From Sphingomonadales bacterium (GTDB lineage Bacteria; Pseudomonadota; Alphaproteobacteria; Sphingomonadales; Sphingomonadaceae): DNA of 64,000 bases. Of this stretch, positions 11,578-34,998 are shown one piece after another. The translations under genes were made by a program, and so were the position numbers. Below the pieces are notes generated by a model. It was given only the letters and a program-made list of their open reading frames with translations, was not told the origin of the DNA and searched no databases. Position 1 is the stretch's first letter; each line of letters begins with the position of its first letter. The stretch lies in contig JBBROX010000001.1 of the NCBI GenBank assembly GCA_038228865.1, positions 368,657 through 432,656 on the forward strand, in the 5' to 3' direction.

Positions 11578-12579
11578 ATGCCGCTACCCACCGTCCTGAC
11601 AAGAAATCTCGAACTTCCCGCAATCGCGGCACCGATGTTTTTGATTTCAGGACCGGAAATGGTCGTTGCCGCCTGTAGATCGGGCGTGATCGGCTCGTTT
11701 CCGACGCCGAATGCGCGGACGCCGGAGATTCTCGATCAGTGGATGGAGCAGATTTCCGGTTCCTTGGCTGTCGATGGCAACGCCGCCTCTTGGGCTGCCA
11801 ATCTGGTGGTGCATCCTTCGAACAGCCGCCTTCCTTCCGATCTCGAATGCGTTTTGAAACATAAGCCGCCGCTGATCATCACCGCGCTCGGCAGCCCGGC
11901 GCGCGTGATCGATGCGATCCACAGTTATGGCGGGTTGGTGTTCGCAGACGTCAATTCCGTCAGCTTCGCCCGAAAGGCGGCGGCAGCAGGTGTGGATGGG
12001 CTTGTTCTTGTTGCCGCAGGGGCGGGGGGGCATACGGGGCACACGGTCGGCTTTGCCTTTGTCGAGGAGGTGCGCGCTTTCTGGGACGGCCCGATTGTGC
12101 TGGGCGGTGCAATCTCGACCGGTCAGGCAATCCGAGCCGCCGAGGTGCTGGGAGCCGACCTCGCCTATCTGGGCACGTCGCTCATAGCATGTTCGGAAAG
12201 CATGGCCGATCCGGCCTACAAGCAAATGGTGGTGGATGCCGACGCTGAATCGATCGTTCCGTCGAAGGGCATTACCGGCGTCACCGCCAATTGGCTCAGG
12301 CCCAGCCTGATCGCGGCAGGATACGATCCCGCCAATATGCCCGAGGACAAGAAGCCCAATTTCGAAAACGCCCAGGACGATGCCAAGGCGTGGAAGAACG
12401 TCTGGTCGGCGGGTCAGGGCGTCGGCGCGGTAAGAAGCTGTGCACCGCTGGCCGATGTCATCGCTCGTCTGAAAGAAGAATATGATGCTGCAGCCGGCTT
12501 GCCGGCATTCGGCGCGAAGGAGAGAAGCAATGACCGTCGAATTGGTCGAGACCATAAAGTCCACGATCCAGTCCACTGA
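11578..12579 (+). CDS. Nitronate monooxygenase / 2-nitropropane dioxygenase family flavoenzyme
   Basis: AAPMFLIS, GAGGHTG, LGGAISTG, AYLGTSLIA, WSAGQGVG motifs; first gene of the island operon. Confidence 0.88.
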   Translation: MPLPTVLTRNLELPAIAAPMFLISGPEMVVAACRSGVIGSFPTPNARTPEILDQWMEQISGSLAVDGNAASWAANLVVHPSNSRLPSDLECVLKHKPPLIITALGSPARVIDAIHSYGGLVFADVNSVSFARKAAAAGVDGLVLVAAGAGGHTGHTVGFAFVEEVRAFWDGPIVLGGAISTGQAIRAAEVLGADLAYLGTSLIACSESMADPAYKQMVVDADAESIVPSKGITGVTANWLRPSLIAAGYDPANMPEDKKPNFENAQDDAKAWKNVWSAGQGVGAVRSCAPLADVIARLKEEYDAAAGLPAFGAKERSNDRRIGRDHKVHDPVH

Positions 12580-14026
12580 GAACCCTTATCTGAAGGGGGC
12601 TTGGCGCCCGACGCACAATGAGTGGAACGCCGCGTTCGCGAACGGCGATGTCGAGGTTATCGGCACCATCCCCGATGACATCGACGGGGTCTATGTGCGC
12701 ACCGGCGAGAACCAGATCAACGAGCCGATCGGCCGCTATCACCCGTTCGACGGCGACGGGCTGATCCATTCAATTTCATTCAAGAACGGCCGCGCGAGCT
12801 ATCGCAGCCGGTTCGTCCGTACCAAGGGATTCCAGGCCGAACAGGAAGCCGGACGTTCGCTATGGGCCGGGCTGATGGAGCCGCCGCACAAATCGATCCG
12901 TCCCGGCTGGGGCGCGCAGGAATGGCTGAAGGATTCGTCCTCCACCGACGTCGTCGTGCACGCTGGCAAGATCCTTTCGACATTCTACCAGTGCGGTGAG
13001 GGCTACCGGCTCGATCCGTTCACGATGGAACAGTACGGCACAGAGGGCTGGGTGCCGCTCGATGGCATTTCGGCGCATTGCAAGACAGACGAGGCGACCG
13101 GGGAGTTGCTGTTCTTCAACTACTCGAAGCATGCACCGTACATGCATTATGGCGTGGTCGGGTCGGACAACCGGCTGAAGCATTATGTCCCGATTCCGTT
13201 GCCGGGGCCGCGCCTGCCGCATGACATGGCGTTCACCCCGAACTATTCGATCCTGAACGACATGCCACTCTATTGGGCGCCGGAGCTTTTGGAAAAAGGG
13301 CTGCACGCAGTCCAGTTCTATCCCGACCAGAAGACGCGCTTTGCGGTCATTCCCCGTTTCGGCCAGCCGGAGGATATTCGCTGGTTCGAGGCCGAACCGA
13401 CCTACACGCTCCACTGGCTGAATGCCTGGGAGGAAGGCGACGAGATCGTGCTCGACGGCTATTTCCAGGAAGAGCCGATGCCCAAATCCTATCCGAACGC
13501 GCCCAAGGGGCTCGAGCGGATGATGGCCTATCTCGACCAGCAACTGCTCAAGCCCAAGCTGCACCGCTGGCGGTTCAATCTGAAAACGGGTGGGACGGTC
13601 GAGGAGCGGCTCGACGATCGAATCCTGGAATTCGGGACGATCAACCAGAAATTTGCGGGTCAAAAATACCGATATGCTTACAGCGCAATTCCGGAGCCGG
13701 GCTGGTTCCTGTTTCGCGGCCTGGTCAAGCACGACCTCGAGACCGGCACGAGCCAGTCGATCGAATTCGGCGAAGGCCGGTTCGGCAGCGAAGCGCCGTT
13801 CGCGCCGCGCATCGGTGCGGTCGACGAGGACGACGGCTACATCGTTTCGTTCGTCGCCGACGTGAACACCGACAAATCCGAATGCGTGCTGATCGACGCC
13901 AAGAACTTCGGAGCGGGGCCGGTATGCCGGATCGTTTTGCCCGAACGGATTTGCGCGGGAACCCATTCCACCTGGGCAAGCGGCAATGACATCGGGATGC
14001 CCGAAAATATCGTGCTGGCGGCCTAA
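12530..14026 (+). CDS. Carotenoid oxygenase (RPE65/CCO/LSD) family dioxygenase, paralog 1
   Basis: AAGGAG RBS before ATG 12530; HPFDGDG; four iron-ligand His motifs: SAHCKTD, LPHDMAFT, TLHWLNAW, GTHSTW; FGSEAPF, EDDGY. Confidence 0.93.
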   Translation: MTVELVETIKSTIQSTENPYLKGAWRPTHNEWNAAFANGDVEVIGTIPDDIDGVYVRTGENQINEPIGRYHPFDGDGLIHSISFKNGRASYRSRFVRTKGFQAEQEAGRSLWAGLMEPPHKSIRPGWGAQEWLKDSSSTDVVVHAGKILSTFYQCGEGYRLDPFTMEQYGTEGWVPLDGISAHCKTDEATGELLFFNYSKHAPYMHYGVVGSDNRLKHYVPIPLPGPRLPHDMAFTPNYSILNDMPLYWAPELLEKGLHAVQFYPDQKTRFAVIPRFGQPEDIRWFEAEPTYTLHWLNAWEEGDEIVLDGYFQEEPMPKSYPNAPKGLERMMAYLDQQLLKPKLHRWRFNLKTGGTVEERLDDRILEFGTINQKFAGQKYRYAYSAIPEPGWFLFRGLVKHDLETGTSQSIEFGEGRFGSEAPFAPRIGAVDEDDGYIVSFVADVNTDKSECVLIDAKNFGAGPVCRIVLPERICAGTHSTWASGNDIGMPENIVLAA

Positions 14027-14027
14027 G

Positions 14028-15722
14028 GTGATTGCAGCGGGGGAGGAGAGGCGTGCGCAATGTCGGGCAAGCGGGTGGTGGGGTGACACGACGCTGGGCG
14101 ACATGTTCGTGGCGAATGCGAGAGCGTTTCCAGATCGCCCGGCGCTGATTGATGCGCCCAACCGGGGCGACATCGCGTTCGGTGATCCGCGGCGGTTCTC
14201 CTATGCCGAAATGCTTGCCGAGGTGGAGCGACTAGCGGGTGCGTTGCTGGCGGGCGGGGTCGCCAAGGACGACGTCGTCATGGTGCAGCTGCCCAACATC
14301 AGCGAACTGGTGAACCTCTATATGGCGGCGGCGCTGATCGGCGCTGTCATCAGTCCGGTCGCGGTGCAGTATCGGTCGCACGAGCTGTCGGGCATGATCG
14401 GTCTCGTCAAACCCAGGGCCTTTGTCTGCGCAACCCGGATGAAGGGCTGCGACCATGTTGGCACAGTGCGGCCGTTGCTCGGCAATGCCGTCCGGCTGAT
14501 GACCGTCGGGCCGGATGCGCCGGTCGACGCAGTCGATCTGTCCACAGCGGCCGCGCAAGATGACATGTTTGCGGCGCATCAGGCCGCGCATCCGGTCGAT
14601 GCCGACGACCTCTTTACGATCTGCTGGACCTCGGGGACGACCGGCGTGCCCAAGGGCGTGCCGCGCAGCCACAACCACTGGGTCGCCATTTCGCCTGGTA
14701 CCTATGAATCGGCACGGCTGCGCGACGGCGATATCATGCTGAACCCGTTCCCGCTGATCAACATGGCCAGTATCGGTGGCGTGACGATGAGCTGGCTCAA
14801 GCGGGCGGGCACGATGGTGCTGCACCACCCGTTCGACCCCAAGGTCTTTCTGGCGCAGATTGCAACTGAGCGTCCGCACTTTACCATCGCGCCGCCTGCC
14901 GTGCTCAACATGCTGCTGCAGGATGAAGCGCTGCTCGCCGAGATCGATCTGTCGAGCCTGCGGACGATCGGTTCGGGTTCGGCACCGCTGGCACCGGCAA
15001 TGGTCAAGGGGTTTCAGGACCGGTTCGGCATCATGGTCATCAACCTGTTCGGATCGAACGAGGGCATGGCGCTGGTCACCGGGCCCGATGATGTTCCCGA
15101 TCCGGAGGAACGCGCCCGCTATTTCCCGCGCGCGCCGCTGTTCTCGCCGCCTTACGGATCGGGCCGGGCCACAAACATCGAAACCCGACTGGTCCCGCCG
15201 AAAGGGGGCAGCGCAATTACCGAAAACGGTGTTTCGGGCGAACTGCAGATCAAGGGGCCGACCCTGTTCGAAGGATATTACGGCGCGCCGGAACAGACGG
15301 CCGCTGCCTTCACCGAGGACGGTTTTTTTAAGACAGGCGATTTGTTCGAAATTGCAGGAAACGGACGATTTTACGAGTTCGTCGGACGCTGCAAGGATCT
15401 CATCATCCGTGGCGGCGTCAACATCGCGCCGGAAGAACTCGACCAGCTGCTGGGCGGCCATCCCAAGCTTCAAGAGGCCTGCGCGTTTTCGCTGCCCGAT
15501 CCCGTCATGGGTGAGCGGGTCGGGGTGGCGGCGGTGCCGCGCGCCGGCGAAACCATCGCGCTCGAAGACGTGACCTCCTGGCTGAAGGCGCGGGATCTGG
15601 CGGTGTTCAAGCTGCCCGAGCGGCTTTTCGTTTTCGACGAATTGCCGCGAAACGTGACGAATAAGGTGATGCGGGGCGACGTGCGCGACCGCGCGCTGGC
15701 CATGCTGAAAATGGACGATTGA
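14028..15722 (+). CDS. Class I adenylate-forming enzyme (acyl/aryl-CoA ligase)
   Basis: WTSGTTGVPKGV, FGSNEG, FFKTGD, GRCKDLIIRGGVNI motifs. GTG start at 14028 inferred. Confidence 0.9.
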   Translation: MIAAGEERRAQCRASGWWGDTTLGDMFVANARAFPDRPALIDAPNRGDIAFGDPRRFSYAEMLAEVERLAGALLAGGVAKDDVVMVQLPNISELVNLYMAAALIGAVISPVAVQYRSHELSGMIGLVKPRAFVCATRMKGCDHVGTVRPLLGNAVRLMTVGPDAPVDAVDLSTAAAQDDMFAAHQAAHPVDADDLFTICWTSGTTGVPKGVPRSHNHWVAISPGTYESARLRDGDIMLNPFPLINMASIGGVTMSWLKRAGTMVLHHPFDPKVFLAQIATERPHFTIAPPAVLNMLLQDEALLAEIDLSSLRTIGSGSAPLAPAMVKGFQDRFGIMVINLFGSNEGMALVTGPDDVPDPEERARYFPRAPLFSPPYGSGRATNIETRLVPPKGGSAITENGVSGELQIKGPTLFEGYYGAPEQTAAAFTEDGFFKTGDLFEIAGNGRFYEFVGRCKDLIIRGGVNIAPEELDQLLGGHPKLQEACAFSLPDPVMGERVGVAAVPRAGETIALEDVTSWLKARDLAVFKLPERLFVFDELPRNVTNKVMRGDVRDRALAMLKMDD

Positions 15723-15726
15723 ACCC

Positions 15727-16887
15727 TTGAAAAACACCTATCTACACGATGCCGTCCGCACGCCGCGCGGCAAGGCTAAGCCCGATGGCGGCCTGGCGGG
15801 TTTCTCGCCGCAAGAACTGGTCCGGCAACAGGTCGATGCGCTGCGGCTGCGTGTCGGGGAGAGCGCCTCCAGCCCCGACATTCTGCTGCTGGGCTGCGTC
15901 GGGCAAGTGGGAACGCAGGGCGGCCATATCGCGCTTGTCTCCAAGTTGCATGCCGGCCTGCCCGATGCGACAGCAGCCCACTCGATTAACAACTATTGTG
16001 CCTCGGGCCTGTCGGCGATCGGTCAAGCGGCGGCGCTGGTCGAAATCGGACAGGCCGGGTCCGCTTTGGCGGGCGGCGTCGAGATGATGAGCCAGGTTCC
16101 CTTCATGGGCGACCGCGCGAGCTTTTATGAGGACGCGAGCTTCCCGCACCGTGCACGCTATATCCCGGTCGTGCTGGCGGCCGACCGCTTGGCCAATGCC
16201 GAAGGGATCGGTCGCGCCGAACTGGACATCGTTGCACTCGCGTCGCAGCGAAAGGCCGGTGCGGCTGAAGGCGACCGAGTCCTGCAACGCTCGCGGATCG
16301 CCACCGCAACGCTTTCCGGCGAAGAATGCATCCGCCCGGCGACCACTGCGGAGGGGCTGGCGGCGATGTCGCCATCCTTCGGCGGCTTGCAGGCTCAATA
16401 TGCCGATGCTCTGAACGGCGCGACATTCGAGCCGTTGCACTCGGTGTCGCACGCGCCACCGGTTTGCGACGGTGCCGGTCTGGCGCTGGTCGGTGGCAAG
16501 GATCTGACACCGAAGCCACGCGCCCGCATCCTTGCCTTTGCCGAGAGCGGCGGCGATCCGGAAGCCTCGCTGACGGCGGGCATCGCTGCGATGGAAAAGG
16601 TACTGGCGCGTGCTGGCCTGTCACTGGCCGATATGGACCGGATTGAGTTCATGGAAGCGTTCGCGGTGACCATCGCCAAGTTTCTGCGCGAATATCCGGT
16701 CGATCCGGAGCGGGTAAACGTGGGCGGTGGGCACATCGCCAAGGGACATCCGATGGGAGCGAGCGGCGCGATTCTGACATCGACTCTGCTCGACTGCCTC
16801 GATGCCTGTGATGGCAGCCTAGGCCTTGTCGTGTTGAGCGGCGCGTCGGGCGTCGGCGCTGCAATGATTGTCGAACGGCTGAACTGA
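15727..16887 (+). CDS. Thiolase-family protein lacking the C-terminal catalytic Cys
   Basis: NNYCASGL (first Cys), MEAFA and GHPMGASG present; the usual LCxGGG motif reads LSGASG. Confidence 0.85.
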   Translation: MKNTYLHDAVRTPRGKAKPDGGLAGFSPQELVRQQVDALRLRVGESASSPDILLLGCVGQVGTQGGHIALVSKLHAGLPDATAAHSINNYCASGLSAIGQAAALVEIGQAGSALAGGVEMMSQVPFMGDRASFYEDASFPHRARYIPVVLAADRLANAEGIGRAELDIVALASQRKAGAAEGDRVLQRSRIATATLSGEECIRPATTAEGLAAMSPSFGGLQAQYADALNGATFEPLHSVSHAPPVCDGAGLALVGGKDLTPKPRARILAFAESGGDPEASLTAGIAAMEKVLARAGLSLADMDRIEFMEAFAVTIAKFLREYPVDPERVNVGGGHIAKGHPMGASGAILTSTLLDCLDACDGSLGLVVLSGASGVGAAMIVERLN

Positions 16888-18606
16888 ATGACGACCGCGC
16901 TGAACGACCTGATCGCCAAACACGCGGGAACGCTGGCGGCGGCGATCGATGCAGTGGAGACCCGCAAGAACTGGAGCCCGTTCAGGGATTCGCCCAGCGG
17001 GAAATTCCATGCGCCCGGCGCATCGGAGGCGGGCAAGGCAGCGTTCGACGCGCAGCTGGGCCGACCTTTCGATCTCGACCAGCCCGGCATTGTCGCCCGC
17101 ACCGGTGCCGAGGTGTCGCCCTTTACCCGCCAACCGCTTGGAATCGATTATCCGGTCAGCGATCCCGCCATGCTCATCGCCGCAGCCAGCGCGGCGATGG
17201 CCGGTTGGCGCAAGGTCGCGCCCGAGGCGCGCATCGCCCTATGCCTCGAAATGGCCACGCAACTCTACGCGCGCAATTTCGAGATGGCGCACAGCGTGAT
17301 GCACGTCGCCGGTCAAAGCTATACGCAAGCCTTCAGCGGCAGCGGTCCCAACGCGCTCGATCGCGGGATCGAAGCGCTGGCCTATGCGGCGAAAGCCATG
17401 CGCGATGTCGTGCCCAGCGCGCGGTGGAACCGCACGTTCGGCAAAGAGGACGTGTCGCTCGACAAGCATTATACCCTGGTCCCGCGCGGGATCGGCCTGG
17501 TCATTTGCTGTGCGTCATTCCCCACTTGGAATGCCTATCCGGCGATGTTTGCAAATCTGGCGACCGGCAATCCGGTGATCGTCAAACCGCATCCAATCGC
17601 CGTCTTGCCGATGGCGATCGTGGTGCAGCAATGCCGCAGGGCTCTTGCCGCATTCGGCTGTGATCCGAACCTCGTAACACTGGCGGTCGACACACTCGAC
17701 GCGCCGGTCGCGCAGCATTTCATCGACCACCCCGCGGTGCAGATCATCGATTTCACCGGAAGCCCGCGTTACGGCGGCCATCTTGAGCGGACGATTACCG
17801 GCAAATTGTTGTTCACCGAAACCGCCGGGCTCAATTCGGTCGTGCTGGACTCCTGTGACGATCTGGCGGCGACCGCCACCGCGATTGCGCGCGCAACGAG
17901 CCTGTTTTCGGCGCAAATGTGCACCAGTCCGCAGAACGTCTATGTGCCGGCAAAGGGAATCGAGACCGGCAGCGGGCATGCCTCTTTCGACGAGGTGGCG
18001 ACGGCACTGGTGGATGCGATCGACGCGATTGCCGACAATCCAGTAATGGCGGCAGGTATCATGGGGGCAGTACAAGCCGAACAGAGTTGCGAGATCGTGC
18101 GCGGGCTCGCCGTTCGCGCTGCGCAAACGCCCGGAGCACGCATCCTGCGCCAACCGACGCCTTATCTGCATCCCGATTTTCCCGATGCGCGAACGATGAC
18201 GCCGCTTGTGGTGGCGCTGCCTGCCGACAATGCGGCGCTCTACGCTGAGGAACACTTCGGCCCGGTCCTGTTTGTCATCGCCGCTGCCGATGGCGATGAT
18301 GCGGTGAGCGAAGCTACCGCTCTGGCGCATACGCACGGTGCGATCTCGTCCTATCTCTATTCCACGGACGACGCGTTCATCGACCGATCGCTCGACGCCT
18401 ATGCGGAATCGGGCATGAACCTATCGATCAACCTACACGGGGCAATGTGGGCCAATTTTGCCGCTGCCTATAGCGATTATCACGTCACTGGCCTGAACCC
18501 GGCGGGTAATGCGTGCCTCGCCGACCTGGCCTTCGTCACGAACCGTTTCCGTATCGTCCAGCACCGTCGTCCTGCGGTGGGGGAAGGGGAGAGCCATGCC
18601 GCATAG
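16888..18606 (+). CDS. PaaN-type aldehyde dehydrogenase family protein
   Basis: CCASFPTWNAYP, LATGNPVIVKPHP, FTGS, ETAGLNSVV, SLFSAQMCTSPQN, EEHFGP, AAYSDYHVTGLNPAGNA, as I recall the PaaN clade. Confidence 0.85.
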   Translation: MTTALNDLIAKHAGTLAAAIDAVETRKNWSPFRDSPSGKFHAPGASEAGKAAFDAQLGRPFDLDQPGIVARTGAEVSPFTRQPLGIDYPVSDPAMLIAAASAAMAGWRKVAPEARIALCLEMATQLYARNFEMAHSVMHVAGQSYTQAFSGSGPNALDRGIEALAYAAKAMRDVVPSARWNRTFGKEDVSLDKHYTLVPRGIGLVICCASFPTWNAYPAMFANLATGNPVIVKPHPIAVLPMAIVVQQCRRALAAFGCDPNLVTLAVDTLDAPVAQHFIDHPAVQIIDFTGSPRYGGHLERTITGKLLFTETAGLNSVVLDSCDDLAATATAIARATSLFSAQMCTSPQNVYVPAKGIETGSGHASFDEVATALVDAIDAIADNPVMAAGIMGAVQAEQSCEIVRGLAVRAAQTPGARILRQPTPYLHPDFPDARTMTPLVVALPADNAALYAEEHFGPVLFVIAAADGDDAVSEATALAHTHGAISSYLYSTDDAFIDRSLDAYAESGMNLSINLHGAMWANFAAAYSDYHVTGLNPAGNACLADLAFVTNRFRIVQHRRPAVGEGESHAA

Positions 18607-19033
18607 TGTCGATGACTTTGTCGGTGCCTGGTCGCTCGTCGACTGGCGGATCGAATACAGCGACGGCGGCGTCACACGACCCTTCGGCACAGCGGCGCAT
18701 GGCTACATCGTCTATGCTGCCAACGGGATCATGGTCGCCAACATCGCCAAGGGCGAGCGCGACACCTTTGGTTTGCCCAATGCCCGCAATGCCGATGCGG
18801 GACAGAAGGGCGCGGCGTTCGACAGCTATTTTGCCTATGCCGGTCCCTGGCGGATAGAGGGCGAAGAGGTCGTTCACGCCGTTACCATGTCGTTGTTTCC
18901 CGACATGACCGGCACCGAGCAGCACCGCCTTGCCGAGTTCGACGGCAAGGGCGGGCTGACGCTTTCGGCGCATGAGCCGCTGAAGGACGGGGCCAGTCGC
19001 CATCACATATTGCAATGGCAACGATCCCGATAA
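18596..19033 (+). CDS. Lipocalin-like domain protein
   Basis: ATG at 18596; FVGAWSLVDW (GxW) motif, PFG..GYIVY..NG.M and YFAYAGPW, typical of Lipocalin_5. Confidence 0.75.
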   Translation: MPHSVDDFVGAWSLVDWRIEYSDGGVTRPFGTAAHGYIVYAANGIMVANIAKGERDTFGLPNARNADAGQKGAAFDSYFAYAGPWRIEGEEVVHAVTMSLFPDMTGTEQHRLAEFDGKGGLTLSAHEPLKDGASRHHILQWQRSR

Positions 19034-19081
19034 GCAATGCCGGACGGGCAGAATTAGGCAAAAACAGAATAGGAGGGTGAT

Positions 19082-25200: not shown

Positions 25201-25217
25201 AGTCCGGTTGTGCAAGT
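25201..25217 (+). promoter_or_regulatory. Candidate island operator, copy 3 (AGTCCGGTTGTGCAAGT)
   Basis: 13/17 match; in the divergent TBDR/SDR intergenic region. Confidence 0.45.
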
Positions 25218-25311: not shown

Positions 25312-25328
25312 AATATGATTATGCAACT
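25312..25328 (+). promoter_or_regulatory. Candidate island operator, copy 4 (AATATGATTATGCAACT)
   Basis: 15/17 match; 81 bp upstream of the SDR ATG at 25410. Confidence 0.62.
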
Positions 25329-26375: not shown

Positions 26376-26441
26376 GTAGCCCGGCGATCGCCTTACGCGC
26401 TGCCTGTTGTTGCGACGGAACATTCTTGCCAAGCTATTGTA

Positions 26442-26458
26442 GCTTGTATAATCAAACC
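26442..26458 (-). promoter_or_regulatory. Candidate island operator, copy 5 (minus strand GGTTTGATTATACAAGC)
   Basis: 13/17 match; 43 bp upstream of the thiolase ATG; contains TATAAT on the plus strand. Confidence 0.5.
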
Positions 26459-26501
26459 AACAGGGCGGCGCGTCTCAACAGCGCAGCCTCGGGAGAGCGA
26501 T

Positions 26502-27731: not shown

Positions 27732-27795
27732 GCGACAGCGTTTTCGATTGCGCGGCGCAGTTCCTGCTTGCCGCCGATATCCGGATCGTCCTGCG

Positions 27796-29586
27796 ATGAC
27801 GGCGGCTTCCGCGCCGTTCAGAGACGTGAACTTCATGCCCGTCGATCTCGACGTTGCGGAGCATGAAGACGGCACCATCTCGTTGCGGACGAACCTGCCG
27901 CTTGAAGAATATGACGCCAATTTGCCTCGGGTCCTTGCCGCGCGTGCCGCGCTGGAAGGCGATAAGAAGGCGCTGGCGATCCGGAATGCTGCAGGGGTTT
28001 GGGAGCACACGAGCTACACGCACTTCAAACGCGACCTCGACGCGGTCACGCAGTGGTTGCTGGATAACATCCCGCGCGGAACGGCGATCCTGCTGATCGG
28101 TCCCAACACGCCCGCCTATGCGACCCTGACCTTCGCGGCCTATGCGGCCGGCGTCATCGTTTGTCCCGTAGGCATGGCCAGCCTCCAATCGGCGGCGGGC
28201 GAAGCGCGCTTGCAGCACGTCATTGCCAAGGCCAAGCCCAGCGCAATCTTTGCCGATGGGACGCTCGTCATCCAGCGGCTGATCGCCCATGTTGCCGATC
28301 CCTCGGTACTGATCATCGCACCCGACCCCGAGAGCTATTCCGGCGCCGTCGTCGCATGGACCGAGCTGGTCGGCACGACCGCCACGCCCGACGTCGCGGC
28401 GGCTATCGACAATTTGGATACGACCGTGCCGGCGTCGTACATGATGACGTCCGGATCGACAGGGTTGCCCAAGTTGGTCGCGACCTCACTGGACAATATT
28501 GCCGCTGTCACGATCCAGAGCACGATCATCTTCGGCCCCGAAGTCTATCAGGGAAACATAGTCGACTGGCTGCCGTGGCATCACGCTGCGGGGGCGGGGG
28601 TGCTGCGCACTACGCTGTTCAATGGCGGTAGCCTCTACATCGACGGCGGAAAGCCGATGCCGACATTGTTCGATGAGACGATCAGGAACCTCCGCGAAAT
28701 CCCGGTCCCGTACTTTGCCAACGTGCCGCAGGGCTTTGCCATGCTGGTCGATGCGATGGAAAAAGATGCCCAGCTGCGGCAGAGCTTTTTCCGGGATATG
28801 CGGCTGATGCTCTACGGCGGCGCGGGCCTGCCCCAGCCGGTCTACGACCGTCTGCAGGCGCTGGCCGTCGCGGAGACCGGCCACCGCATCCATATGTCGA
28901 GCGGCTATGGCATGACCGAGACGGTCACCGGCTGCATTGCCATCCATTTTCCGACGGACCGCGTCGGTATAGGCCTGCCGCCACCGGGGATCGAGGTAAA
29001 GCTGGTGCCCAACGGGAGCCGGTACGAAGTGCGCCTGCGTGGGCCGAACGTCATGATGGGCTATGTCGACGAACCCGAGCAGACGGCCAAGGCGTTCGAC
29101 GACGAAGGCTTTTACCGGACAGGCGACCTCGCCAATTTTCATGACCGCAACAATCCGGGCGAAGGTTTGTATTTCGCCGGCAGACTGGCCGAGGAGTTCA
29201 AACTGTTAACCGGCAGCTGGGTTTACGGTGGGCAGGTGCGCGACGCGGTCCTCGAACAGCTCGACGGCGATGTGTCGGAAATCGTGCTGTGCGGAGAGAA
29301 CCGGGAGTATCTGACGGTGATGGCGTGGCCGAAGTCCTCCGACGACGGCACGCTGCTCGCGCGCATCACCGAAAAACTGAAACTGTATAACGCGCGCGGC
29401 ACGGGAGCGTCGGTTGGTATCCGGCGCGTCGTACTTCTGGAATTGCCGCCCAATCCTGTTGGGGGCGAAGTTTCGGACAAGGGCACGATCAATCGCCGTG
29501 CCGTGCTAACCAACCGCGCCGACATCCTCGAACAACTCTATGCCGCTGATCCGGGCACGCACATCGGTATCGTCCAGGGAAACTAG
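27796..29586 (+). CDS. Feruloyl-CoA synthetase-like acyl-CoA ligase
   Basis: MTSGSTGLPK, DWLPWHH, SGYGMTET, RGPNVMMGY, FYRTGD, GRLAEEFKL.TGSWV, GEVSDKGTIN. Confidence 0.85.
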   Translation: MTAASAPFRDVNFMPVDLDVAEHEDGTISLRTNLPLEEYDANLPRVLAARAALEGDKKALAIRNAAGVWEHTSYTHFKRDLDAVTQWLLDNIPRGTAILLIGPNTPAYATLTFAAYAAGVIVCPVGMASLQSAAGEARLQHVIAKAKPSAIFADGTLVIQRLIAHVADPSVLIIAPDPESYSGAVVAWTELVGTTATPDVAAAIDNLDTTVPASYMMTSGSTGLPKLVATSLDNIAAVTIQSTIIFGPEVYQGNIVDWLPWHHAAGAGVLRTTLFNGGSLYIDGGKPMPTLFDETIRNLREIPVPYFANVPQGFAMLVDAMEKDAQLRQSFFRDMRLMLYGGAGLPQPVYDRLQALAVAETGHRIHMSSGYGMTETVTGCIAIHFPTDRVGIGLPPPGIEVKLVPNGSRYEVRLRGPNVMMGYVDEPEQTAKAFDDEGFYRTGDLANFHDRNNPGEGLYFAGRLAEEFKLLTGSWVYGGQVRDAVLEQLDGDVSEIVLCGENREYLTVMAWPKSSDDGTLLARITEKLKLYNARGTGASVGIRRVVLLELPPNPVGGEVSDKGTINRRAVLTNRADILEQLYAADPGTHIGIVQGN

Positions 29587-29592
29587 ACCTAC

Positions 29593-30387
29593 ATGGAAAT
29601 CGCGCATCTCTTTCTCGCCAATGCGGCCATTCTTGTCGCCGCGTTCGCCACGCTCTGGTTGATCTGTCTTGGTTTGAAGGATGTGACGCCGGTCGACAGT
29701 TCCTGGGCACTCGGGATGGTCGTCATGGCAGTCAGCACATTCTTGCAGACCGACGGCAATCCCGACCGCAAGCTCCTCCTGCTGACGTTATGCGCCGCAT
29801 GGGGCATCCGCCTTGGCTGGTACATGTTGTGGCGCTGGCGTCATCATGGGCCGGACCGCCGCTATGTGAAGCTGCTCGACAAGGCGAAGCAAAATCGCGG
29901 CTGGGGTTTCGGCAAGGCTTCGCTCCTGCTCGTCTTTGCCACCCAGGCACCGTTGCTTTTTATCGTCTGCCTGCCGGTTCAGCTCGGCCAGATCGACGCT
30001 GGCCCGGTCCTGGGCCCCATCGGCTATATCGGCGCGGCGCTGGCCATATTCGGGATCATCTTCGAATCGCTGGCGGATTACCAGCTCGTGCTCTTCAAGG
30101 CGGATGCGGCCAACACCGGTAAGGTGATGGATAGCGGCCTATGGCGTTACACACGGCATCCCAATCATTTCGGCGATGCCTGTGCGTGGTGGGGAATCTA
30201 CCTTGTTGCTGCCGAAACAGCGACGGGTGTCTGGTCGATTGTCGGGCCGATCCTGTTGACCTGGACGCTGATGAAATGGTCCGGTGCACCCACGGTCGAA
30301 GGCAGCATGCGCCGAAAGAAGCCCGACTATGAGGACTATATCCGGCGGACAGCAGCCTTCTTCCCCTGGCCGCCCCGGCAGGCATGA
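29593..30387 (+). CDS. DUF1295 / steroid 5-alpha-reductase-like membrane protein
   Basis: Multiple TMs; WGIRLG, DRRY, ESLADYQL, GLWRYTRHPNHFGD. Confidence 0.88.
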   Translation: MEIAHLFLANAAILVAAFATLWLICLGLKDVTPVDSSWALGMVVMAVSTFLQTDGNPDRKLLLLTLCAAWGIRLGWYMLWRWRHHGPDRRYVKLLDKAKQNRGWGFGKASLLLVFATQAPLLFIVCLPVQLGQIDAGPVLGPIGYIGAALAIFGIIFESLADYQLVLFKADAANTGKVMDSGLWRYTRHPNHFGDACAWWGIYLVAAETATGVWSIVGPILLTWTLMKWSGAPTVEGSMRRKKPDYEDYIRRTAAFFPWPPRQA

Positions 30388-30400
30388 TCGACGGTCGCGC

Positions 30401-31462
30401 GTGACGTACCAAGTCATCCAGTGGGCAACCGGCGCGATGGGCAGGACATGCCTGCAGGCCGTGATCGATCATCCTGCGATGGAGCTCGTCGGCCTGTACG
30501 TCTATAGCGAGGCAAAGGCAGGCAAGGACGCCGGCGCTATCGCGCGGCGCGACTCGGTGGGTGTCGTGGCTACTTCCGATATCGACGAAATCCTTGCGCT
30601 CGATGCCGATGTCGTCATCCACTGTGCGCGGATATTGCCGCCGTTTGGATCGCATGATGCGGAGATCATCCGGCTGCTGGAGAGCGGCAAGAACGTCATT
30701 AGCATCAATGGCTACAGCGATCCGGGGCGGTGGGACAGTGCGCGGCGTGCGGTGCTTGCGGCAGCGTGCGCAAAGGGTAACTCGACGCTCATGGGCGCGG
30801 GTCTCAATCCCGGGTTTGCGGCCGAGCAACTGGCCGTCGTCGCGACCGGGGCCTGTTCGCGTGTCGACCGGGTGGACATCACCGAATATGTCGATTGCCG
30901 CGCAGTCAAACATCCCGAATATGTCTTCGGCAGCCTCGGCTTTGCGTCCGATCCCGCAACGATCGATCCCAATGACGCCGACTGGGGACCCGCTGCCCTC
31001 ATGAACGGCATGTATCGCGAAGTGCTGTCGGCCATGGCAGAGCGGCTTAGCGTTCAGTTGGAAAGGGTTCAGACAGAACACCGTGTCTTCGCCGCAGCCA
31101 GCGATCTGGAAATCGCGGCCGGTGTGATTCCCCAAGGCCGCGTCAGCCACGTCAACTGGCGATGGGCGGGCTACGTCGGCGACCAGCGTCGGCTAACGCT
31201 ATCGATCCATTGGTTTATGGAAACGACACACCTTGCCAACGCGGCACCGCCGCTGTGGGAGATCGACATCGTTGGCCAACCTTGCGTACATTTGAAGATC
31301 GAGGTCGAGAAGCACCCGGAGGACCAGAGCCGGGTTACGGCCGAACAGCTCGGGCTGGCCGGTGCCGTGATCAATGCCATTCCGGTCGTCTGCGACGCGC
31401 CCAGCGGATTGTGTCTACGTCCGGTGGCTACACCCTATCGGGCAGACCTCGGCGGCTGGTAA
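30401..31462 (+). CDS. DapB-like Rossmann oxidoreductase (NAD(P)H-dependent amine dehydrogenase-like family)
   Basis: GTG at 30401; VIQWATGAMG, LLESGKNVIS, GAGLNPGF, VINAIPVVCDA.SG. Confidence 0.75.
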   Translation: MTYQVIQWATGAMGRTCLQAVIDHPAMELVGLYVYSEAKAGKDAGAIARRDSVGVVATSDIDEILALDADVVIHCARILPPFGSHDAEIIRLLESGKNVISINGYSDPGRWDSARRAVLAAACAKGNSTLMGAGLNPGFAAEQLAVVATGACSRVDRVDITEYVDCRAVKHPEYVFGSLGFASDPATIDPNDADWGPAALMNGMYREVLSAMAERLSVQLERVQTEHRVFAAASDLEIAAGVIPQGRVSHVNWRWAGYVGDQRRLTLSIHWFMETTHLANAAPPLWEIDIVGQPCVHLKIEVEKHPEDQSRVTAEQLGLAGAVINAIPVVCDAPSGLCLRPVATPYRADLGGW

Positions 31463-31470
31463 GCCTGGGT

Positions 31471-32379
31471 CTACGCCACCTCGGCATAGAATGCGGCAAA
31501 GGCTGCCTCGGCACCGGTGTGGGCACGAAGGCGATCCGCAGCGCCGATGTCGATGGCCCGTTCGGCCAGCCAAGCCGGGTCGTTCCCGTGGGGACCAACT
31601 AGCGCGCTTTCGACCGGGACGACGCGCTTGATATACTGACCTGCCGCCACCCACATGCTGCCAGTTTCCGTGCATTCCGGACCCGATAGCCATACCGCCG
31701 CCGCTGCCACTTCGTCCGGGCTCAATTTGGCATCCGGCGCGGCGTTGGTCCGGGTGGTCATGGTTGTCGCGGCATAGGGCATCAGGATGTTCACGAGGAT
31801 GCCATTGCGGCGCTGTTCGTGCGCGAGCGACAGAGCAAAAGCGTTCAGCGCGCCCTTCGACGCCGCATAGGCGGCCCTGCCTCGGACACCATAGACTCCG
31901 GCCGTGGACGAAACGAACAGGATGCGCGGGTTATCGGACTTCATCAGATACGGCAGCGCCGCCCGCACGATCGCGGTATTCGCAAAGAAGTTGATGGCCA
32001 TAACCTGTTCGAGGCCGCCATCGCTCAGCGTGCCCACCTTCTCGGCAGGCCCCTCGATCGCGGCGTTGAGAATCAGCGCATCCAGTCTCCCGAATTTATC
32101 GACTGCGGCATCGACCATCGCCACTGCGGCACCGGGCGCCTGAACGTCGTGATGATCCGCCGCCGCGCTCAATCCTTCCGCTGCCAGGTCCGCGACGATC
32201 TGATCGACGGGGGAGGGACCAGCGCCCGAAAACCTGTTGTTGATCAGGATTGCCGCGCCGTTGCGCGCGCAGGCTGTGGCGAAGGACTTACCCAGCCCTT
32301 TCGAGGCACCCGTTACCAGGATTGATCGGGCGCCGGGAAATGCGGTGTTTTGGTTGGTTGGCATGCCGTGAGTCTGCAT
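31471..32379 (-). CDS. SDR family oxidoreductase (MFE-2 / hydroxyacyl-CoA dehydrogenase-like)
   Basis: TGASKGLG, ILNAA, YAASKG, VNILMPYA.T.MT. Alternative start at 32364. Confidence 0.88.
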   Translation of the reverse strand: MQTHGMPTNQNTAFPGARSILVTGASKGLGKSFATACARNGAAILINNRFSGAGPSPVDQIVADLAAEGLSAAADHHDVQAPGAAVAMVDAAVDKFGRLDALILNAAIEGPAEKVGTLSDGGLEQVMAINFFANTAIVRAALPYLMKSDNPRILFVSSTAGVYGVRGRAAYAASKGALNAFALSLAHEQRRNGILVNILMPYAATTMTTRTNAAPDAKLSPDEVAAAAVWLSGPECTETGSMWVAAGQYIKRVVPVESALVGPHGNDPAWLAERAIDIGAADRLRAHTGAEAAFAAFYAEVA

Positions 32380-32384
32380 CCGGC

Positions 32385-32401
32385 AGTATGATCATGCAAG
32401 C
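32385..32401 (+). promoter_or_regulatory. Candidate island operator, copy 6 (AGTATGATCATGCAAGC)
   Basis: 15/17 match; spans the stop codon of the HxlR gene and lies directly upstream of the SDR. Confidence 0.6.
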
Positions 32402-33369
32402 GACAAGGCATCGTTTGTTGGTACCAATTTCGCGTCGAATCTGGCGCCGTCGATCTGGAGCGTAAACGCGACATCCTTCGCCTGAATCGGTACGCTGCAC
32501 TCGGAACAAACCACCTCCGGTTTCAGTGAATTCCCACACGCAGTGTGCGTCAGAAGGATCGGCGGACCTTCGGGCGAACCATAGTATTTGTCTCCCCATT
32601 CCATCAGCAGCAGCAAGGCCGGGAAATAGGCGGCGCCTTTACGTGTGGTCCGATATTCGAAGCGCGGCGGCGCGGACGCGTATTGGACCTGCTTGACGAC
32701 GCCGAATTCCTCCAGCCAAGCTAGTCGTTCAGCGAGGATATTGGTTGCGATCGCCGTGTCCTGGCGAATCTCCTCAAACCGGTGGATGCCAGTGAAAATC
32801 GACCGCATGATGAGACTGGCCCACCGATCCCCGAGCAGCTGGGCGGCCTGTTCAAAGATCCTGGAGCCATCTTCGGTGCTGGCCCGCTGTTGGCGACGGC
32901 GGCTGTAAATCGGTGCCATCCACCCGACTCCCGGCCCTTCTTTCCAGTCGATCTCGCCTATGTTGAACGACGTTTTGCAGTTGTGACACGACGGAACAGG
33001 CAGGAAGTTGTTCCCGCAAACCTCGTGTTTGAGCTCGACCGAAATATTGCTCGATTGCTCACCCCATTCTATTTCCCACCTAAGGAGAATGAGGGAAACA
33101 GGGTATAAGTCCCGACCCTTCTTGGTCAGAATATATTCGTATCGCGGGGGGCGAGTATTATAGAGTGATTTTTCCACCAGGCCGTTGGCAACGAGTTTTT
33201 TGAGGCGGTCGCTCAGCAACGCTCTCAGCAGCCCTGTGGCACTGAGAAAATCGTCGAACTTGCGGGCACCGAGCAAACTTGCTTCCAAAATGAGCAAGGT
33301 CGACGTGTCGCCGACCACTTCCAGCGCCCGCCAGATCGAACAGGTTTTGATGAGAGTTTTGCCGTGCAT
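32392..33369 (-). CDS. Tandem (double) HxlR/DUF24 winged-helix transcriptional regulator
   Basis: Two HxlR units: CSIWRALEVVGD..LLSDRLKKLV..PPRYEYILTKKG and QLLGDRWASLI..RFEEI..ILAERL..PPRFEYRTTRKG; each followed by HxxCG...CxxC. Confidence 0.9.
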   Translation of the reverse strand: MHGKTLIKTCSIWRALEVVGDTSTLLILEASLLGARKFDDFLSATGLLRALLSDRLKKLVANGLVEKSLYNTRPPRYEYILTKKGRDLYPVSLILLRWEIEWGEQSSNISVELKHEVCGNNFLPVPSCHNCKTSFNIGEIDWKEGPGVGWMAPIYSRRRQQRASTEDGSRIFEQAAQLLGDRWASLIMRSIFTGIHRFEEIRQDTAIATNILAERLAWLEEFGVVKQVQYASAPPRFEYRTTRKGAAYFPALLLLMEWGDKYYGSPEGPPILLTHTACGNSLKPEVVCSECSVPIQAKDVAFTLQIDGARFDAKLVPTNDALSLA

Positions 33370-33453
33370 TGGGGCGGTCTAACGCGGGTAGGGCCGGGGG
33401 TCTACGTGACGCCCTTGCAAGCGGGAAAGACAGGTCCATCCGGCCACGTCGTT

Positions 33454-33470
33454 ACTTGCATAGTCGAACT
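33454..33470 (-). promoter_or_regulatory. Candidate island operator, copy 7 (minus strand AGTTCGACTATGCAAGT)
   Basis: 14/17 match; between the divergent regulator and oxygenase paralog 2. Confidence 0.6.
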
Positions 33471-33516
33471 CGAGCGCGTAGGCGTGCGCGAAATTTGCTG
33501 CACATGGAGAGCGTGC

Positions 33517-34998
33517 GTGGATGTGCAATTTCTCGAGCCGGTAGGATCGTCGCTCAAGCCGACAAATCATCCTTATCTGACCGGACCTTGGACCCCCACT
33601 TTTACCGAAGCGACGGCAATCGATCTCGACGTCATCGAGGGTCGCATTCCCGACGACATCGACGGCATATATGTTCGAAACACCGAGAATCAGGTTCACC
33701 AGCCGCTGGGGAGTTACCACCCGTTCGATGGCGACGGGATGGTGCATGTCATCAGCTTCAAAAATGGGAAGGCCGACTACCGCAATCGGTTCGTGCGGAC
33801 GCGCGGTTTCGCCGCCGAGCAGGAGGCGGGCCAGTCGCTATGGGGCGGACTGATGGATCCTCCGGGCACGTCGCTGCGCCCGGGCTTCGGTGCGCACGGC
33901 GCACTGAAGGATTCCTCGAGTACTGATGTCGTCGTCCATGCTGGCAAGATCGTTTCCACTTTTTACCAGTGCGGCGAAGCCTATCTGCTCGATCCGGAGA
34001 CGGTCGAGCAGGAGGGTATTGCCGGTTGGGGTCCGCTCGACGGGATCTCGGCGCATCCCAAGGTCGACGAATCCACCGGAGAAATGCTGTTCTTCAACTA
34101 CGGCGTCTACGCGCCTTACATGCATTACGGTGTGGTCGACCGGACCGGCAAATGCGTCCATTACGTGCCGATCCCGCTCCCGGGACCGCGCCTGCCGCAC
34201 GACATGGCATTCACGAAAAACTACTCGATCCTGAACGATTTTCCGCTGTTCTGGGATGAGCAACTGCTGAAGCGAAATATTCACGCATCGCGCTTTCACC
34301 GGGACATGAAGTCCCGTTTTGCAATCATTCCCCGCTATGGTCGGACAGAGGACATCCGCTGGTTCGAAGCCGATCCGACCTATGTGCTGCACTGGCAGAA
34401 TGCCTATGAAGAGGGCGACGAAATCGTCCTCGACGGCTATTTCCAGGAAAATCCGACGCCCCGCCCGCTTGAGGACGCGCCCGACGGGATGGGGCATATG
34501 ATGGCCTTTCTCGACGAGCACAGCTTCCGACCGAAGCTTCACCGCTGGCGTTTCAACCTGAAGACGGGCGAGACGACCGAGCATGATCTCGACGACCGCA
34601 TCCTCGAATTCGGCATGTTCAACCAGCGCTATGCCGGCATTCCCTACCGCTATGCCTACAGCACCACGACTAAGCCCGGCTGGTTCCTGTTCAACGGGTT
34701 CGTCAAGCACGACCTGGAGACCGGCGAGTCGTGGGGCGTGAAGCTCCCCGACGGTGTTTTCGCCAGCGAGGCACCGTTCGTGCCCCGGATAAATGCGGCC
34801 GACGAGGATGACGGCTATCTCGTGAGTTTCCTCATCGACGAAAACAGCCAGACCTCAGAATGCATCCTGATCGATTGCAAGGACTTCGCTGCCGGCCCGG
34901 TGGTCCGCATCGCGTTGCCCCACAAGATTTGCAGCGGGACGCATGCCACATGGGCTGATCGGCGATTCATCGCGAACGGTTATCTATCACGTACGTAG
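33517..34998 (+). CDS. Carotenoid oxygenase family dioxygenase, paralog 2
   Basis: GGAGAG RBS before GTG 33517; HPFDGDG; four His motifs: SAHPKVD, LPHDMAFT, VLHWQNAY, GTHATW. Confidence 0.93.
   Translation: MDVQFLEPVGSSLKPTNHPYLTGPWTPTFTEATAIDLDVIEGRIPDDIDGIYVRNTENQVHQPLGSYHPFDGDGMVHVISFKNGKADYRNRFVRTRGFAAEQEAGQSLWGGLMDPPGTSLRPGFGAHGALKDSSSTDVVVHAGKIVSTFYQCGEAYLLDPETVEQEGIAGWGPLDGISAHPKVDESTGEMLFFNYGVYAPYMHYGVVDRTGKCVHYVPIPLPGPRLPHDMAFTKNYSILNDFPLFWDEQLLKRNIHASRFHRDMKSRFAIIPRYGRTEDIRWFEADPTYVLHWQNAYEEGDEIVLDGYFQENPTPRPLEDAPDGMGHMMAFLDEHSFRPKLHRWRFNLKTGETTEHDLDDRILEFGMFNQRYAGIPYRYAYSTTTKPGWFLFNGFVKHDLETGESWGVKLPDGVFASEAPFVPRINAADEDDGYLVSFLIDENSQTSECILIDCKDFAAGPVVRIALPHKICSGTHATWADRRFIANGYLSRT

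Follow-up and report, generated by a model that had tools for sequence, protein, structure and literature searches.

Why a bacterium should keep both of its carotenoid cleavage oxygenase (CCO) genes amid a set of uptake, activation and chain-shortening genes is the question raised by a 64,000-nucleotide stretch of a Sphingomonadales genome (GenBank assembly GCA_038228865.1, contig JBBROX010000001.1), hereafter termed the window. Twenty genes at positions 11572-34998 form a block of ~24 kb, the island, which encodes the oxygenases CCO1 and CCO2, a TonB-dependent outer-membrane receptor, two acyl-coenzyme A (CoA) ligases (lig1, lig2), two thiolases (thl1, thl2), three short-chain dehydrogenases (SDR_a to SDR_c), three NTF2-fold proteins (SnoaL_a to SnoaL_c), a DUF1295 membrane protein, an NMO-family flavoenzyme, a DapB_N/Ord-like oxidoreductase, a PaaN-type aldehyde dehydrogenase, a Lipocalin_5 protein, a serine hydrolase and a tandem HxlR regulator (Table 1). 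An initial annotation, made from the sequence alone, had named these families and read them as one catabolic unit; Pfam and NCBIfam searches recovered every one of them in its place, and the resulting make-up of uptake plus catabolism is borne out. Only two RPE65/CCO-family genes are found in the whole genome (3.26 Mb, 99.85% complete), and both lie inside the island. At a probability of about 0.7, the island represents a catabolic regulon under joint control, directed at an imported, unsaturated, lipid-like compound that a CCO would cleave.

Recurrence of the gene set and its operator-like box

The whole block from the NMO gene to CCO2 recurs in the congener G018, where it is colinear and retains 79-95% amino-acid identity. 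Its flanks are different there: none of the flanking genes of the window is found nearby, and CCO2 is followed by a SnoaL gene instead of the MaoC gene seen in the window. Hence, the block acts as a unit that has been placed in differing genomic contexts. Within the genus, the CCO2 clade is patchy, being present in about half of the 24 congeners searched, and other congeners retain only a triad of thl2, DUF1295 and CCO.

Beyond the genus, a species-representative collection (one genome per species) was scanned with an alignment of the CCO clade, by which more than 586 stretches were matched. The proteins of the window were then compared with the best 80 of these, and partner counts refer to the 56 of the 80 loci that exceed 15 kb. 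DUF1295 is the commonest partner of the oxygenase (34 loci) and thl2 is a core partner as well (31), followed by NMO (23), the tandem HxlR regulator (21), thl1, SDR_a and SnoaL_c (20 each), lig2 and the TonB receptor (19 each), lig1 and SnoaL_b (18 each) and the DapB-like oxidoreductase (15), so that twelve partner genes are each present in 15-34 of the 56 loci. SDR_c (10) and SnoaL_a (8) are rarer, and PaaN (3) and Lipocalin_5 (2) are rarer still, while the serine hydrolase, SDR_b and MaoC occur in none of the 80 loci; the serine hydrolase is known only from this genome and from G018, whose copy is 85% identical. PaaN, lipocalin, serine hydrolase and SDR_b, which had been counted among the parts of the pathway, are thus to be regarded as accessory (0-3 of 56 loci). 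De novo clustering of the open reading frames (ORFs) in the related loci additionally yielded a recurrent major facilitator superfamily (MFS) transporter (10 loci) and a SnoaL_4 protein (14 loci).

The loci stem from Caulobacterales, Sphingomonadales, Burkholderiales and Niveispirillum, a genus of the Rhodospirillales. Gene order and orientation vary among Phenylobacterium, Parasphingorhabdus, Sphingomonas, Blastomonas, Sphingopyxis, Glacieibacterium, Hyphococcus, Niveispirillum and Hydrogenophaga, and such shuffling is the mark that selection for co-occurrence leaves, as opposed to inherited order.

A third line of evidence is provided by a shared motif, which the initial annotation had noticed and which proved to be real. 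Within the window, the pattern AYTATGCAAST is confined to 11540, 25318 and 33454, and allowing one mismatch adds no further site. Since this pattern was derived from its own sites, its 9-mer core TATGCAA[CG]T was tested genome-wide: four sites are present in the entire genome, three of which occupy promoter gaps of the island. The fourth (TATGCAAGT, G000:C5:50215) is located ~166 bp upstream of a second TonB receptor gene on contig C5 (L113:6382-9174), which encodes 930 aa, directly follows infC and is a likely extra member of the regulon. Among the 80 related loci, 19 of 29 sites of the 9-mer fall into intergenic gaps that adjoin cluster genes, namely SnoaL_b/TonB-dependent receptor, SnoaL_b/CCO, lig1/DapB-like and the region upstream of DUF1295, and these gap sites span Caulobacterales, Sphingomonadales, Burkholderiales and Niveispirillum.

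The extended box reads AGT-N7-TGCAAGT over 17 nt; each promoter gap of the island contains it, and it reappears in the corresponding intergenic gaps of other orders. A variant of it, AGTATGACTATGAAAGT, immediately precedes the genes for a SnoaL_b paralogue and an MFS transporter on contig C13, and this pair is orthologous (78-82% identical) to a pair that lies divergently beside a CCO gene in Sphingomonas colocasiae. Because the SnoaL-MFS pair adjoins CCO genes in other genomes, the C13 pair looks displaced by an insertion-sequence event, and its MFS protein is the candidate for the inner-membrane transporter that the island does not encode. The C13 segment (G000:C13:643-5456) comprises a transposase gene at the contig start, the box-marked SnoaL_b paralogue, the MFS gene and two convergent acyl-CoA dehydrogenase genes.

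Taken together, the G018 block, the co-occurrence of partners across orders and the shared motif constitute three independent lines of evidence, which is why the gene set is real and not a chance neighbourhood. The view of the island as one functional unit is therefore upheld by synteny and co-occurrence across several orders and by the conserved operator-like box.

The box is presumably bound by the tandem HxlR protein, as judged from its placement and co-occurrence. This protein matches PF01638 with 125 bits in two separate stretches of a single chain of 325 aa. It belongs to the same winged-helix family as HxlR, YodB and HypR of Bacillus subtilis and QsrR of Staphylococcus aureus, and it resembles these HxlR/DUF24 systems in that the regulator is divergent from its presumed target genes and operator-like boxes lie in the gaps. 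It differs from them by the fusion of two domains in one chain and by the asymmetry of the box.

The cleavage oxygenases and their partner enzymes

Both oxygenases match PF03055 over their full length, with 418 bits for CCO1 and 404 bits for CCO2 (cut-off 27). The four Fe(II)-binding histidines (H231, H279, H343 and H527 in CCO2 numbering) are invariant in an alignment of 10 sequences that includes CCO1, and in CCO2 they align with the ligand motifs AHPK, HD, H..NA and H..W of the lignostilbene dioxygenase LsdA. The best NCBIfam match of both proteins is NF052295, the 8'-apo-carotenoid 13,14-cleaving dioxygenase, with 222 and 238 bits against a cut-off of 675; the LSD equivalog NF053778 (210 and 227 bits, cut-off 800) and the NOV2 equivalog NF053780 (168 and 191 bits, cut-off 650) score lower. 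Likewise, among solved structures a carotenoid 9,10-dioxygenase is closest (9m6z, 217 bits), with LsdA forming the second group (177 bits). Carotenoid 9,10-dioxygenase (9m6z, 9m3e, 9luz), VP14, the Synechocystis ACO, Rv0654 of Mycobacterium tuberculosis, NACOX1 and SaCCO share the family, the fold and the four iron-binding histidines with the island enzymes. Carotenoid and apocarotenoid oxygenases are their best-scoring solved and curated relatives, with scores far below the equivalog cut-offs.

The initial annotation had also listed stilbenoids as substrates, and this suggestion is unlikely to hold. In LsdA, Tyr101 and Lys134, which we take to be the residues that hold and activate the 4-hydroxyl group of the substrate and which were located by counting on the alignment, correspond in CCO2 to Leu (GGLMD versus GAYRN) and Tyr (STFYQC versus YAMKED), respectively. 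The same replacements are seen in the clade consensus, the alignment of which includes CCO1. With this pair replaced, 4-hydroxystilbenes such as lignostilbene and resveratrol, as well as 4-hydroxystyrene-type compounds such as isoeugenol, are unlikely substrates.

CCO1 and CCO2 are 66% identical, and the two genes, 20,978 bp apart, are the sole long repeats in the window. In a maximum-likelihood tree of 58 clade members, CCO2 nests among sequences of Phenylobacterium and other Caulobacteraceae (support 97/95), while CCO1 pairs with a Qipengyuania sequence (L110; 100/100) as sister to the betaproteobacterial L107 and L109 (99/99). The loci L107 and L109 also carry PaaN, and L107 carries Lipocalin_5 in addition. 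The tree thus argues that the two genes did not arise by a local duplication. Moreover, the Qipengyuania locus holds a stand-alone form of unit 1, equipped with a regulator, a receptor and an SCP2-type thiolase of its own. Since the oxygenases come from different subclades and unit 1 exists elsewhere in self-contained form, the island is a composite of two modules fused under one box, module A consisting of genes 1-7 with CCO1 and the other of genes 8-20 with CCO2, rather than the single ancestral block that had been assumed. The gene tree also conflicts with taxonomy, as Hydrogenophaga is placed beside Niveispirillum and Bordetella beside Brevundimonas; this is suggestive of horizontal transfer, although caution is called for because many of the loci are metagenome bins.

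A Sphingorhabdus-type CCO subclade (L038, L042 and similar; 8 loci, support 100/100) lacks all of the partner genes over a distance of 10 kb. Genes for an acyl-CoA dehydrogenase and an aldehyde dehydrogenase are found upstream of the CCO gene in 7 of the 8 loci.

Among the partner enzymes, thl2 displays the motifs of an SCP2-type thiolase when aligned to 4bi9: EAACASGS with the Cys nucleophile, EVHDCF with the HDCF motif and MGHPVGATG with GHP..GATG. Thiolases of this type act on 2-methyl-branched 3-oxoacyl-CoAs. The second thiolase, thl1, resembles mycobacterial FadA and keeps the first Cys and the His in an alignment to 3svk. The best matches of lig1, none of which reaches its cut-off, are medium-chain, cyclohexanecarboxylate and FadD3-type ligases, and for lig2 no close solved relative was obtained in a sequence search of the PDB. 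The DapB-like oxidoreductase is distantly similar to native amine dehydrogenases. A role of the DUF1295 protein as an ene-reductase has a precedent in UsgR, a similar fungal protein with that activity (PMC8597850).

With regard to the NTF2-fold proteins, SnoaL_b exceeds the cut-off of the limonene-epoxide hydrolase (LEH) family PF07858 (36.6 bits, cut-off 24), and SnoaL_c remains just below it (23.4 bits). Aligned to LEH, SnoaL_b keeps the Arg-x-Asp element (ERVD) and carries Glu (WREY) in place of Asp132; Arg99, Asp101 and Asp132 are taken here to be the catalytic residues of LEH, with Tyr53 and Asn55 as the water-positioning pair. SnoaL_b could accordingly be an altered epoxide hydrolase, another acid-base catalyst or a periplasmic lipid carrier. 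A PDB sequence search returned no relative of SnoaL_a, and no specific NCBIfam assignment was obtained for the TonB receptor. PaaN exceeds the cut-off of its family only just. As no match to PF05138 (PaaA/PaaC) is present in the 99.85%-complete genome, the PaaN-type aldehyde dehydrogenase cannot serve phenylacetate degradation, and this role was discarded.

From these components, the following route may be proposed. The compound would be carried across the outer membrane by the TonB receptor or receptors, after which the exported NTF2/LEH-like proteins might open an epoxide or ferry the lipid through the periplasm, and an ester may be removed by the exported serine hydrolase, a step confined to this genome. 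The box-marked MFS transporter encoded on contig C13 would bring the compound into the cytoplasm, where lig1 and lig2 would form CoA thioesters and a CCO would cut a conjugated C=C bond to yield aldehyde or ketone fragments. Oxidation of these fragments could be accomplished by the SDRs, assisted in module A by the PaaN-type dehydrogenase, while DUF1295 and the NMO-type flavoenzyme would reduce conjugated C=C bonds and the SCP2-type and FadA-like thiolases would shorten the chains. The tandem HxlR protein would occupy the AGT-N7-TGCAAGT box and be released by the substrate or by an electrophilic aldehyde product. To call this a complete route, as had been done, is an overstatement: an inner-membrane transporter and an acyl-CoA dehydrogenase are absent from the 20 genes of the island, and the box-marked MFS transporter, a fourth SnoaL protein and the second TonB receptor are encoded on other contigs.

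Candidate substrates and competing readings

Constraints on the substrate come from the host and from distant relatives of the island. The genome encodes a phytoene synthase, and outside the window a microbial rhodopsin gene adjoins blh, which encodes a beta-carotene 15,15'-dioxygenase (PF15461; G000:C4:90814-92426). The host is therefore a carotenoid-making, retinal-using bacterium. Because blh stands beside the rhodopsin gene, the CCOs are not needed for retinal, and retinal synthesis was dismissed as a role of the island.

Homologues with 50-54% identity reside on Cupriavidus megaplasmids. On pRK1-2 of C. basilensis, the oxygenase is accompanied by a winged-helix regulator, an NMO, an adenylate-forming enzyme, a thiolase, an SDR and an aldehyde dehydrogenase, all of which bear only generic product names (PGAP), and the TonB receptor is replaced by a porin, a substrate-binding protein of the tripartite tricarboxylate transporter (TTT) type and an MFS transporter. 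The box was not found in this plasmid locus. Hence, the label 'TonB-anchored' fits the island itself and does not fit the gene set in general, as a TonB receptor occurs in only the 19 of 56 loci mentioned above and Cupriavidus uses porin plus TTT. The plasmid locus (L114, 140307-165716) contains two genes of the CCO family with a porin gene after each, and has alpha/beta hydrolases, TTT binding proteins, MFS transporters and aldehyde dehydrogenases in the vicinity.

Carboxylates are the usual ligands of TTT binding proteins. The occurrence of such a protein, along with that of the MFS transporter and the two CoA ligases, suggests that what reaches the cytoplasm is a modest-sized carboxylic acid and not an intact C40 carotenoid. 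In addition, a substrate unsaturated from the outset is consistent with the absence of acyl-CoA dehydrogenases. Most plausibly, the substrate would be a methyl-branched polyene of the apocarotenoid type, poorly soluble in water, that probably carries or acquires a carboxyl group, and a carotenoid-derived unsaturated acid is our best guess. That the substrate derives from carotenoids at all is put forward tentatively, as a possibility that falls short of an even chance. The same reserve applies to the wider proposal of a bacterial route that would assimilate xanthophyll or epoxy-carotenoid fragments, apocarotenoic acids, retinoids or abscisic-acid-like molecules from phototrophs, which would be governed by a new single-chain double-HxlR sensor and have spread horizontally among aquatic and soil Proteobacteria.

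Several observations weigh against an imported carotenoid-derived substrate and its catabolism by this regulon. The substrate is read from family resemblance alone, and both oxygenases stay far below every NCBIfam equivalog cut-off. In thl1, LSGASG replaces the expected LCIGGG, with Ser for the second catalytic Cys, and MEAF replaces NEAF, with Met for Asn; devoid of the acid/base Cys, it departs from a classical FadA-type thiolase. SnoaL_b has Leu for Tyr53 and Ser for Asn55 and has thus lost the water-positioning pair of LEH. An enoyl-CoA hydratase that is conserved elsewhere is wanting, as is an acyl-CoA dehydrogenase in the island, so that a scheme of the beta-oxidation kind is incomplete. 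The loose box AGT-N7-TGCAAST (10 positions) is not enriched genome-wide, with 7 sites against 2-7 in shuffled sequences; only the 9-mer core is diagnostic, and the sites at 25201 and 32385 are for this reason tentative. Many of the related loci belong to metagenome bins. Finally, the host makes its own carotenoids, which renders an internal substrate possible.

This last point leads to a different reading, according to which the genes handle stress from, or turnover of, carotenoids made by the cell itself and the products of their photo-oxidation, with an electrophile-sensing HxlR protein inducing the cutting, reduction and oxidation of membrane apocarotenals. HxlR/DUF24 regulators are known electrophile sensors, and phytoene synthase, rhodopsin and blh would supply the appropriate background; moreover, many genomes hold just the CCO-DUF1295-thl2 triad without any transporter. 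A DUF1295 gene is also induced by singlet oxygen in Chlamydomonas (PMC4067076). An internal role is nevertheless unlikely: the same box marks one or two TonB receptors, exported NTF2 proteins and an MFS importer, the presence of two CoA ligases and two thiolases speaks for the assimilation of carbon, and the patchy distribution in the genus as well as the discordance between gene tree and taxonomy fit an accessory catabolic trait.

The closest known design is that of lignin-dimer catabolism. In the beta-1, beta-5 and beta-beta pathways of the related Alphaproteobacteria Sphingobium sp. SYK-6 and Novosphingobium aromaticivorans, uptake through TonB receptor and MFS transporter (DdvT, DdvK), preparation by NTF2 (LdpA/PcfL) and SDR (LdpB/LdpC) proteins and a C=C cut by CCO-family enzymes (LsdA-H) follow the same plan (PMC12997858). 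Since many carriers of the gene set are sphingomonads and LsdA is the second-best group of solved structures, degradation of lignin- or plant-derived aromatic dimers such as stilbenes and lignans has to be weighed. It is quite improbable: the island oxygenases have no phenol-binding Tyr and Lys, the LSD and NOV2 scores are far below cut-off, and two NTF2 proteins are exported here. Most prominent in the set are CoA ligases, thiolases and ene-reductase-type proteins, which are unused in those pathways; indeed, the two CoA ligases, the SCP2- and FadA-type thiolases, DUF1295, NMO, the DapB-like protein and the tandem HxlR regulator have no counterpart there.

A further proposal, which we regard as very unlikely, specifies abscisic acid (ABA) or a similar small apocarotenoid or sesquiterpenoid acid, the methyl-branched dienoic side chain of which would be activated with CoA and shortened while the enone is cut or reduced. 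Bacterial ABA catabolism does begin with stepwise shortening of the side chain, via dehydrovomifoliol to rhodococcal acid, and a Novosphingobium strain grows on ABA (PMC9599779, PMC13619911, PMC6938937). The variant with porin, TTT and MFS suggests a small carboxylate, and ene-reductase-type and SDR genes would fit vomifoliol-type chemistry. On the other hand, the reported intermediates can be reached without a C=C dioxygenase, import of an acid of 264 Da through a TonB receptor would be unusual, and the cluster is often found in oligotrophs of marine and lake waters.

It is scarcely credible that the island is a loose collection of unrelated lipid-metabolism genes, or a maker of retinal or of a signalling apocarotenoid, for although all its families are common and individually unspecific and the host rhodopsin requires retinal, the genes recur together in shuffled order across orders, the box is almost unique in the genome, blh adjoins the rhodopsin gene, and transporters, ligases and thiolases are not features of biosynthesis.

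Two further systems invite comparison with the proposed catabolic regulon. The degradation of steroid side chains and rings C/D (FadD3, IpdC, FadA5/6, Ltp-type thiolases) and peroxisomal branched-chain beta-oxidation (SCPx, MFE-2) employ the same mix of enzymes. The likeness extends to CoA ligase, NMO-type reductase, SDR and SCP2- and FadA-type thiolases that act on methyl-branched or alicyclic acyl-CoAs, and is accompanied by weak NCBIfam matches. In contrast to steroid degradation, the island has no steroid-ring oxygenases (KshAB, HsaA-D) and no acyl-CoA dehydrogenases, and a CCO is foreign to those pathways. The second system is found in Mycobacterium tuberculosis, where Rv0913c is an uncharacterised putative CCO according to a 2016 review (PMC5133782). 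It stands beside Rv0914c, a putative lipid-carrier protein/thiolase, and the two, likened here by description only, resemble the core pair of CCO and SCP2-type thiolase seen in the island. To our knowledge, no TonB receptor, NTF2 proteins or HxlR regulator accompany that pair.

Layout, surroundings and significance

The genes of the island are predicted to form five transcription units (Table 1). Start codons were adjusted by means of N-terminal sequences and gene calls on public contigs, and several remain uncertain; signal peptides were assigned from the N-termini by eye, without a predictor. A scan for sigma-70 promoters and terminators gave matches no commoner than in shuffled sequence.

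Table 1. Predicted transcription units, genes and operator-like boxes, in window coordinates
Feature	Position	Strand	Remarks
Unit 1	11572-20455	+	NMO, CCO1, lig1, thl1, PaaN-type aldehyde dehydrogenase, Lipocalin_5, serine hydrolase
Unit 2	25115-20496	-	TonB receptor, SnoaL_c, SnoaL_b, SDR_a, SnoaL_a
Unit 3	25410-31462	+	SDR_b, thl2, lig2, DUF1295, DapB_N/Ord-like oxidoreductase
Unit 4	33369-31471	-	tandem HxlR regulator, SDR_c
Unit 5	from 33517	+	CCO2
NMO-family FMN oxidoreductase (FabK/IpdC-like)	11572-12579	+	PF03060, 76.5 bits; candidate enoyl reductase
CCO1, CCO-family dioxygenase	12530-14026	+	PF03055, 418 bits
lig1, acyl-CoA ligase	13986-15722	+	Pfam/NCBIfam
thl1, FadA-like thiolase	15727-16887	+	Pfam/NCBIfam; alignment to 3svk
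PaaN-type aldehyde dehydrogenase	16888-18606	+	TIGR02288, 594 bits (cut-off 578.75); accessory
Lipocalin_5 protein, cytoplasmic	18596-19033	+	PF13924, 108 bits; accessory
Beta-lactamase-fold serine hydrolase, exported	19082-20455	+	PF00144, 130.6 bits; N-terminal signal; accessory
SnoaL_a, cytoplasmic NTF2-fold protein	20496-20882	-	PF12680
SDR_a, short-chain dehydrogenase	20918-21661	-	PF00106; NF006118, 279 bits, exactly the cut-off
SnoaL_b, LEH-like, exported (Sec)	21708-22160	-	PF07858, 36.6 bits
SnoaL_c, NTF2-fold protein	22210-22719	-	PF12680; twin-arginine leader (MIDRRLF...)
TonB-dependent outer-membrane receptor	22803-25115	-	plug and barrel domains
SDR_b	25410-26375	+	Pfam; 321 aa according to gene calls of public assemblies; accessory
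thl2, SCP2-type thiolase	26502-27731	+	NF004936, 639.5 bits (cut-off 375)
lig2, acyl-CoA ligase, PRK12582-like	27796-29586	+	Pfam/NCBIfam
DUF1295 membrane protein (steroid-5-alpha-reductase/PEMT-like)	29593-30387	+	PF06966, 238 bits; candidate ene-reductase
DapB_N/Ord-like NAD(P) oxidoreductase	~30410-31462	+	start codon uncertain; ORF opens at 30284
SDR_c	31471-32379	-	Pfam
Single-chain regulator with two HxlR (DUF24) winged-helix domains	32392-33369	-	PF01638
CCO2, main-clade dioxygenase	33517-34998	+	PF03055, 404 bits
MaoC-like (R)-hydratase	35004-35612	+	PF01575; membership doubtful
Box 1, AGTATGATTATGCAAGT	11534..11550	+	ends 22 bp before NMO start; conserved in G018 (L016:13633)
Weaker box, AGTCCGGTTGTGCAAGT	25201..25217	+	86 bp upstream of receptor start; tentative
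Box 2, AATATGATTATGCAACT	25312..25328	+	82 bp upstream of SDR_b, in the gap to the divergent receptor gene; conserved in G018 (L015:19902)
Box-like site, AGTATGATCATGCAAGC	32385..32401	+	between HxlR stop and SDR_c start; tentative
Box 3, AGTTCGACTATGCAAGT	33454..33470	-	divergent HxlR/CCO2 gap, 47 bp before CCO2; conserved in G018 (L015:11812)

On the left, the island is bordered by unrelated genes for a cell-wall hydrolase and polysaccharide export. On the right, the MaoC-like hydratase gene begins 5 bp after CCO2 and is followed by the sulfate-activation operon cysD-cysNC-cysQ (35784-39324), which is unlinked to the island in G018. The MaoC gene is neither adjacent to the G018 island nor present in any of the 80 related loci, and its membership in the pathway therefore finds no support outside this genome. 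No integration scars in the form of a tRNA gene in the window or of flanking direct repeats were detected. At 8001-10000, across sugar-transferase and polysaccharide-export genes, the GC content is 0.56 as compared to ~0.62 elsewhere, and this segment may be a separately acquired surface-polysaccharide region.

As to novelty, a full-text literature search retrieved no paper describing the cluster, in agreement with the impression of the initial annotation that it is not a described pathway; the generic PGAP names on the plasmid relative are in line with this. No characterised pathway was matched, and synteny and, as judged from the shared box, probable co-regulation were found in other genomes. 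Known carotenoid oxygenases have been studied as single genes that make apocarotenoids, and none has been described in a regulon with transporters, CoA ligases and thiolases (PMC5133782). New are the two-module composite with oxygenases of different subclades, the dispersal of box-marked parts to other contigs (the second receptor, and the SnoaL-MFS pair beside a transposase), and the different flanks in the congener together with the porin/TTT variant on the Cupriavidus plasmid.

Carotenoids and their fragments are produced in very large amounts by phototrophs, and no paper was found that describes a bacterial pathway for their assimilation; similarly, the genes for bacterial ABA breakdown are still unassigned (PMC13619911, PMC9599779). 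The regulon offers a concrete gene set around an orphan CCO clade, comprising a regulator with its putative operator, two oxygenases and transporters. Roles would follow for bacterial DUF1295 proteins, exported LEH-like NTF2 proteins, tandem HxlR regulators and a thiolase without the second cysteine. Even if the substrate should turn out to be mundane, the genes would still represent a widespread catabolic module that is labelled only generically by current annotation.

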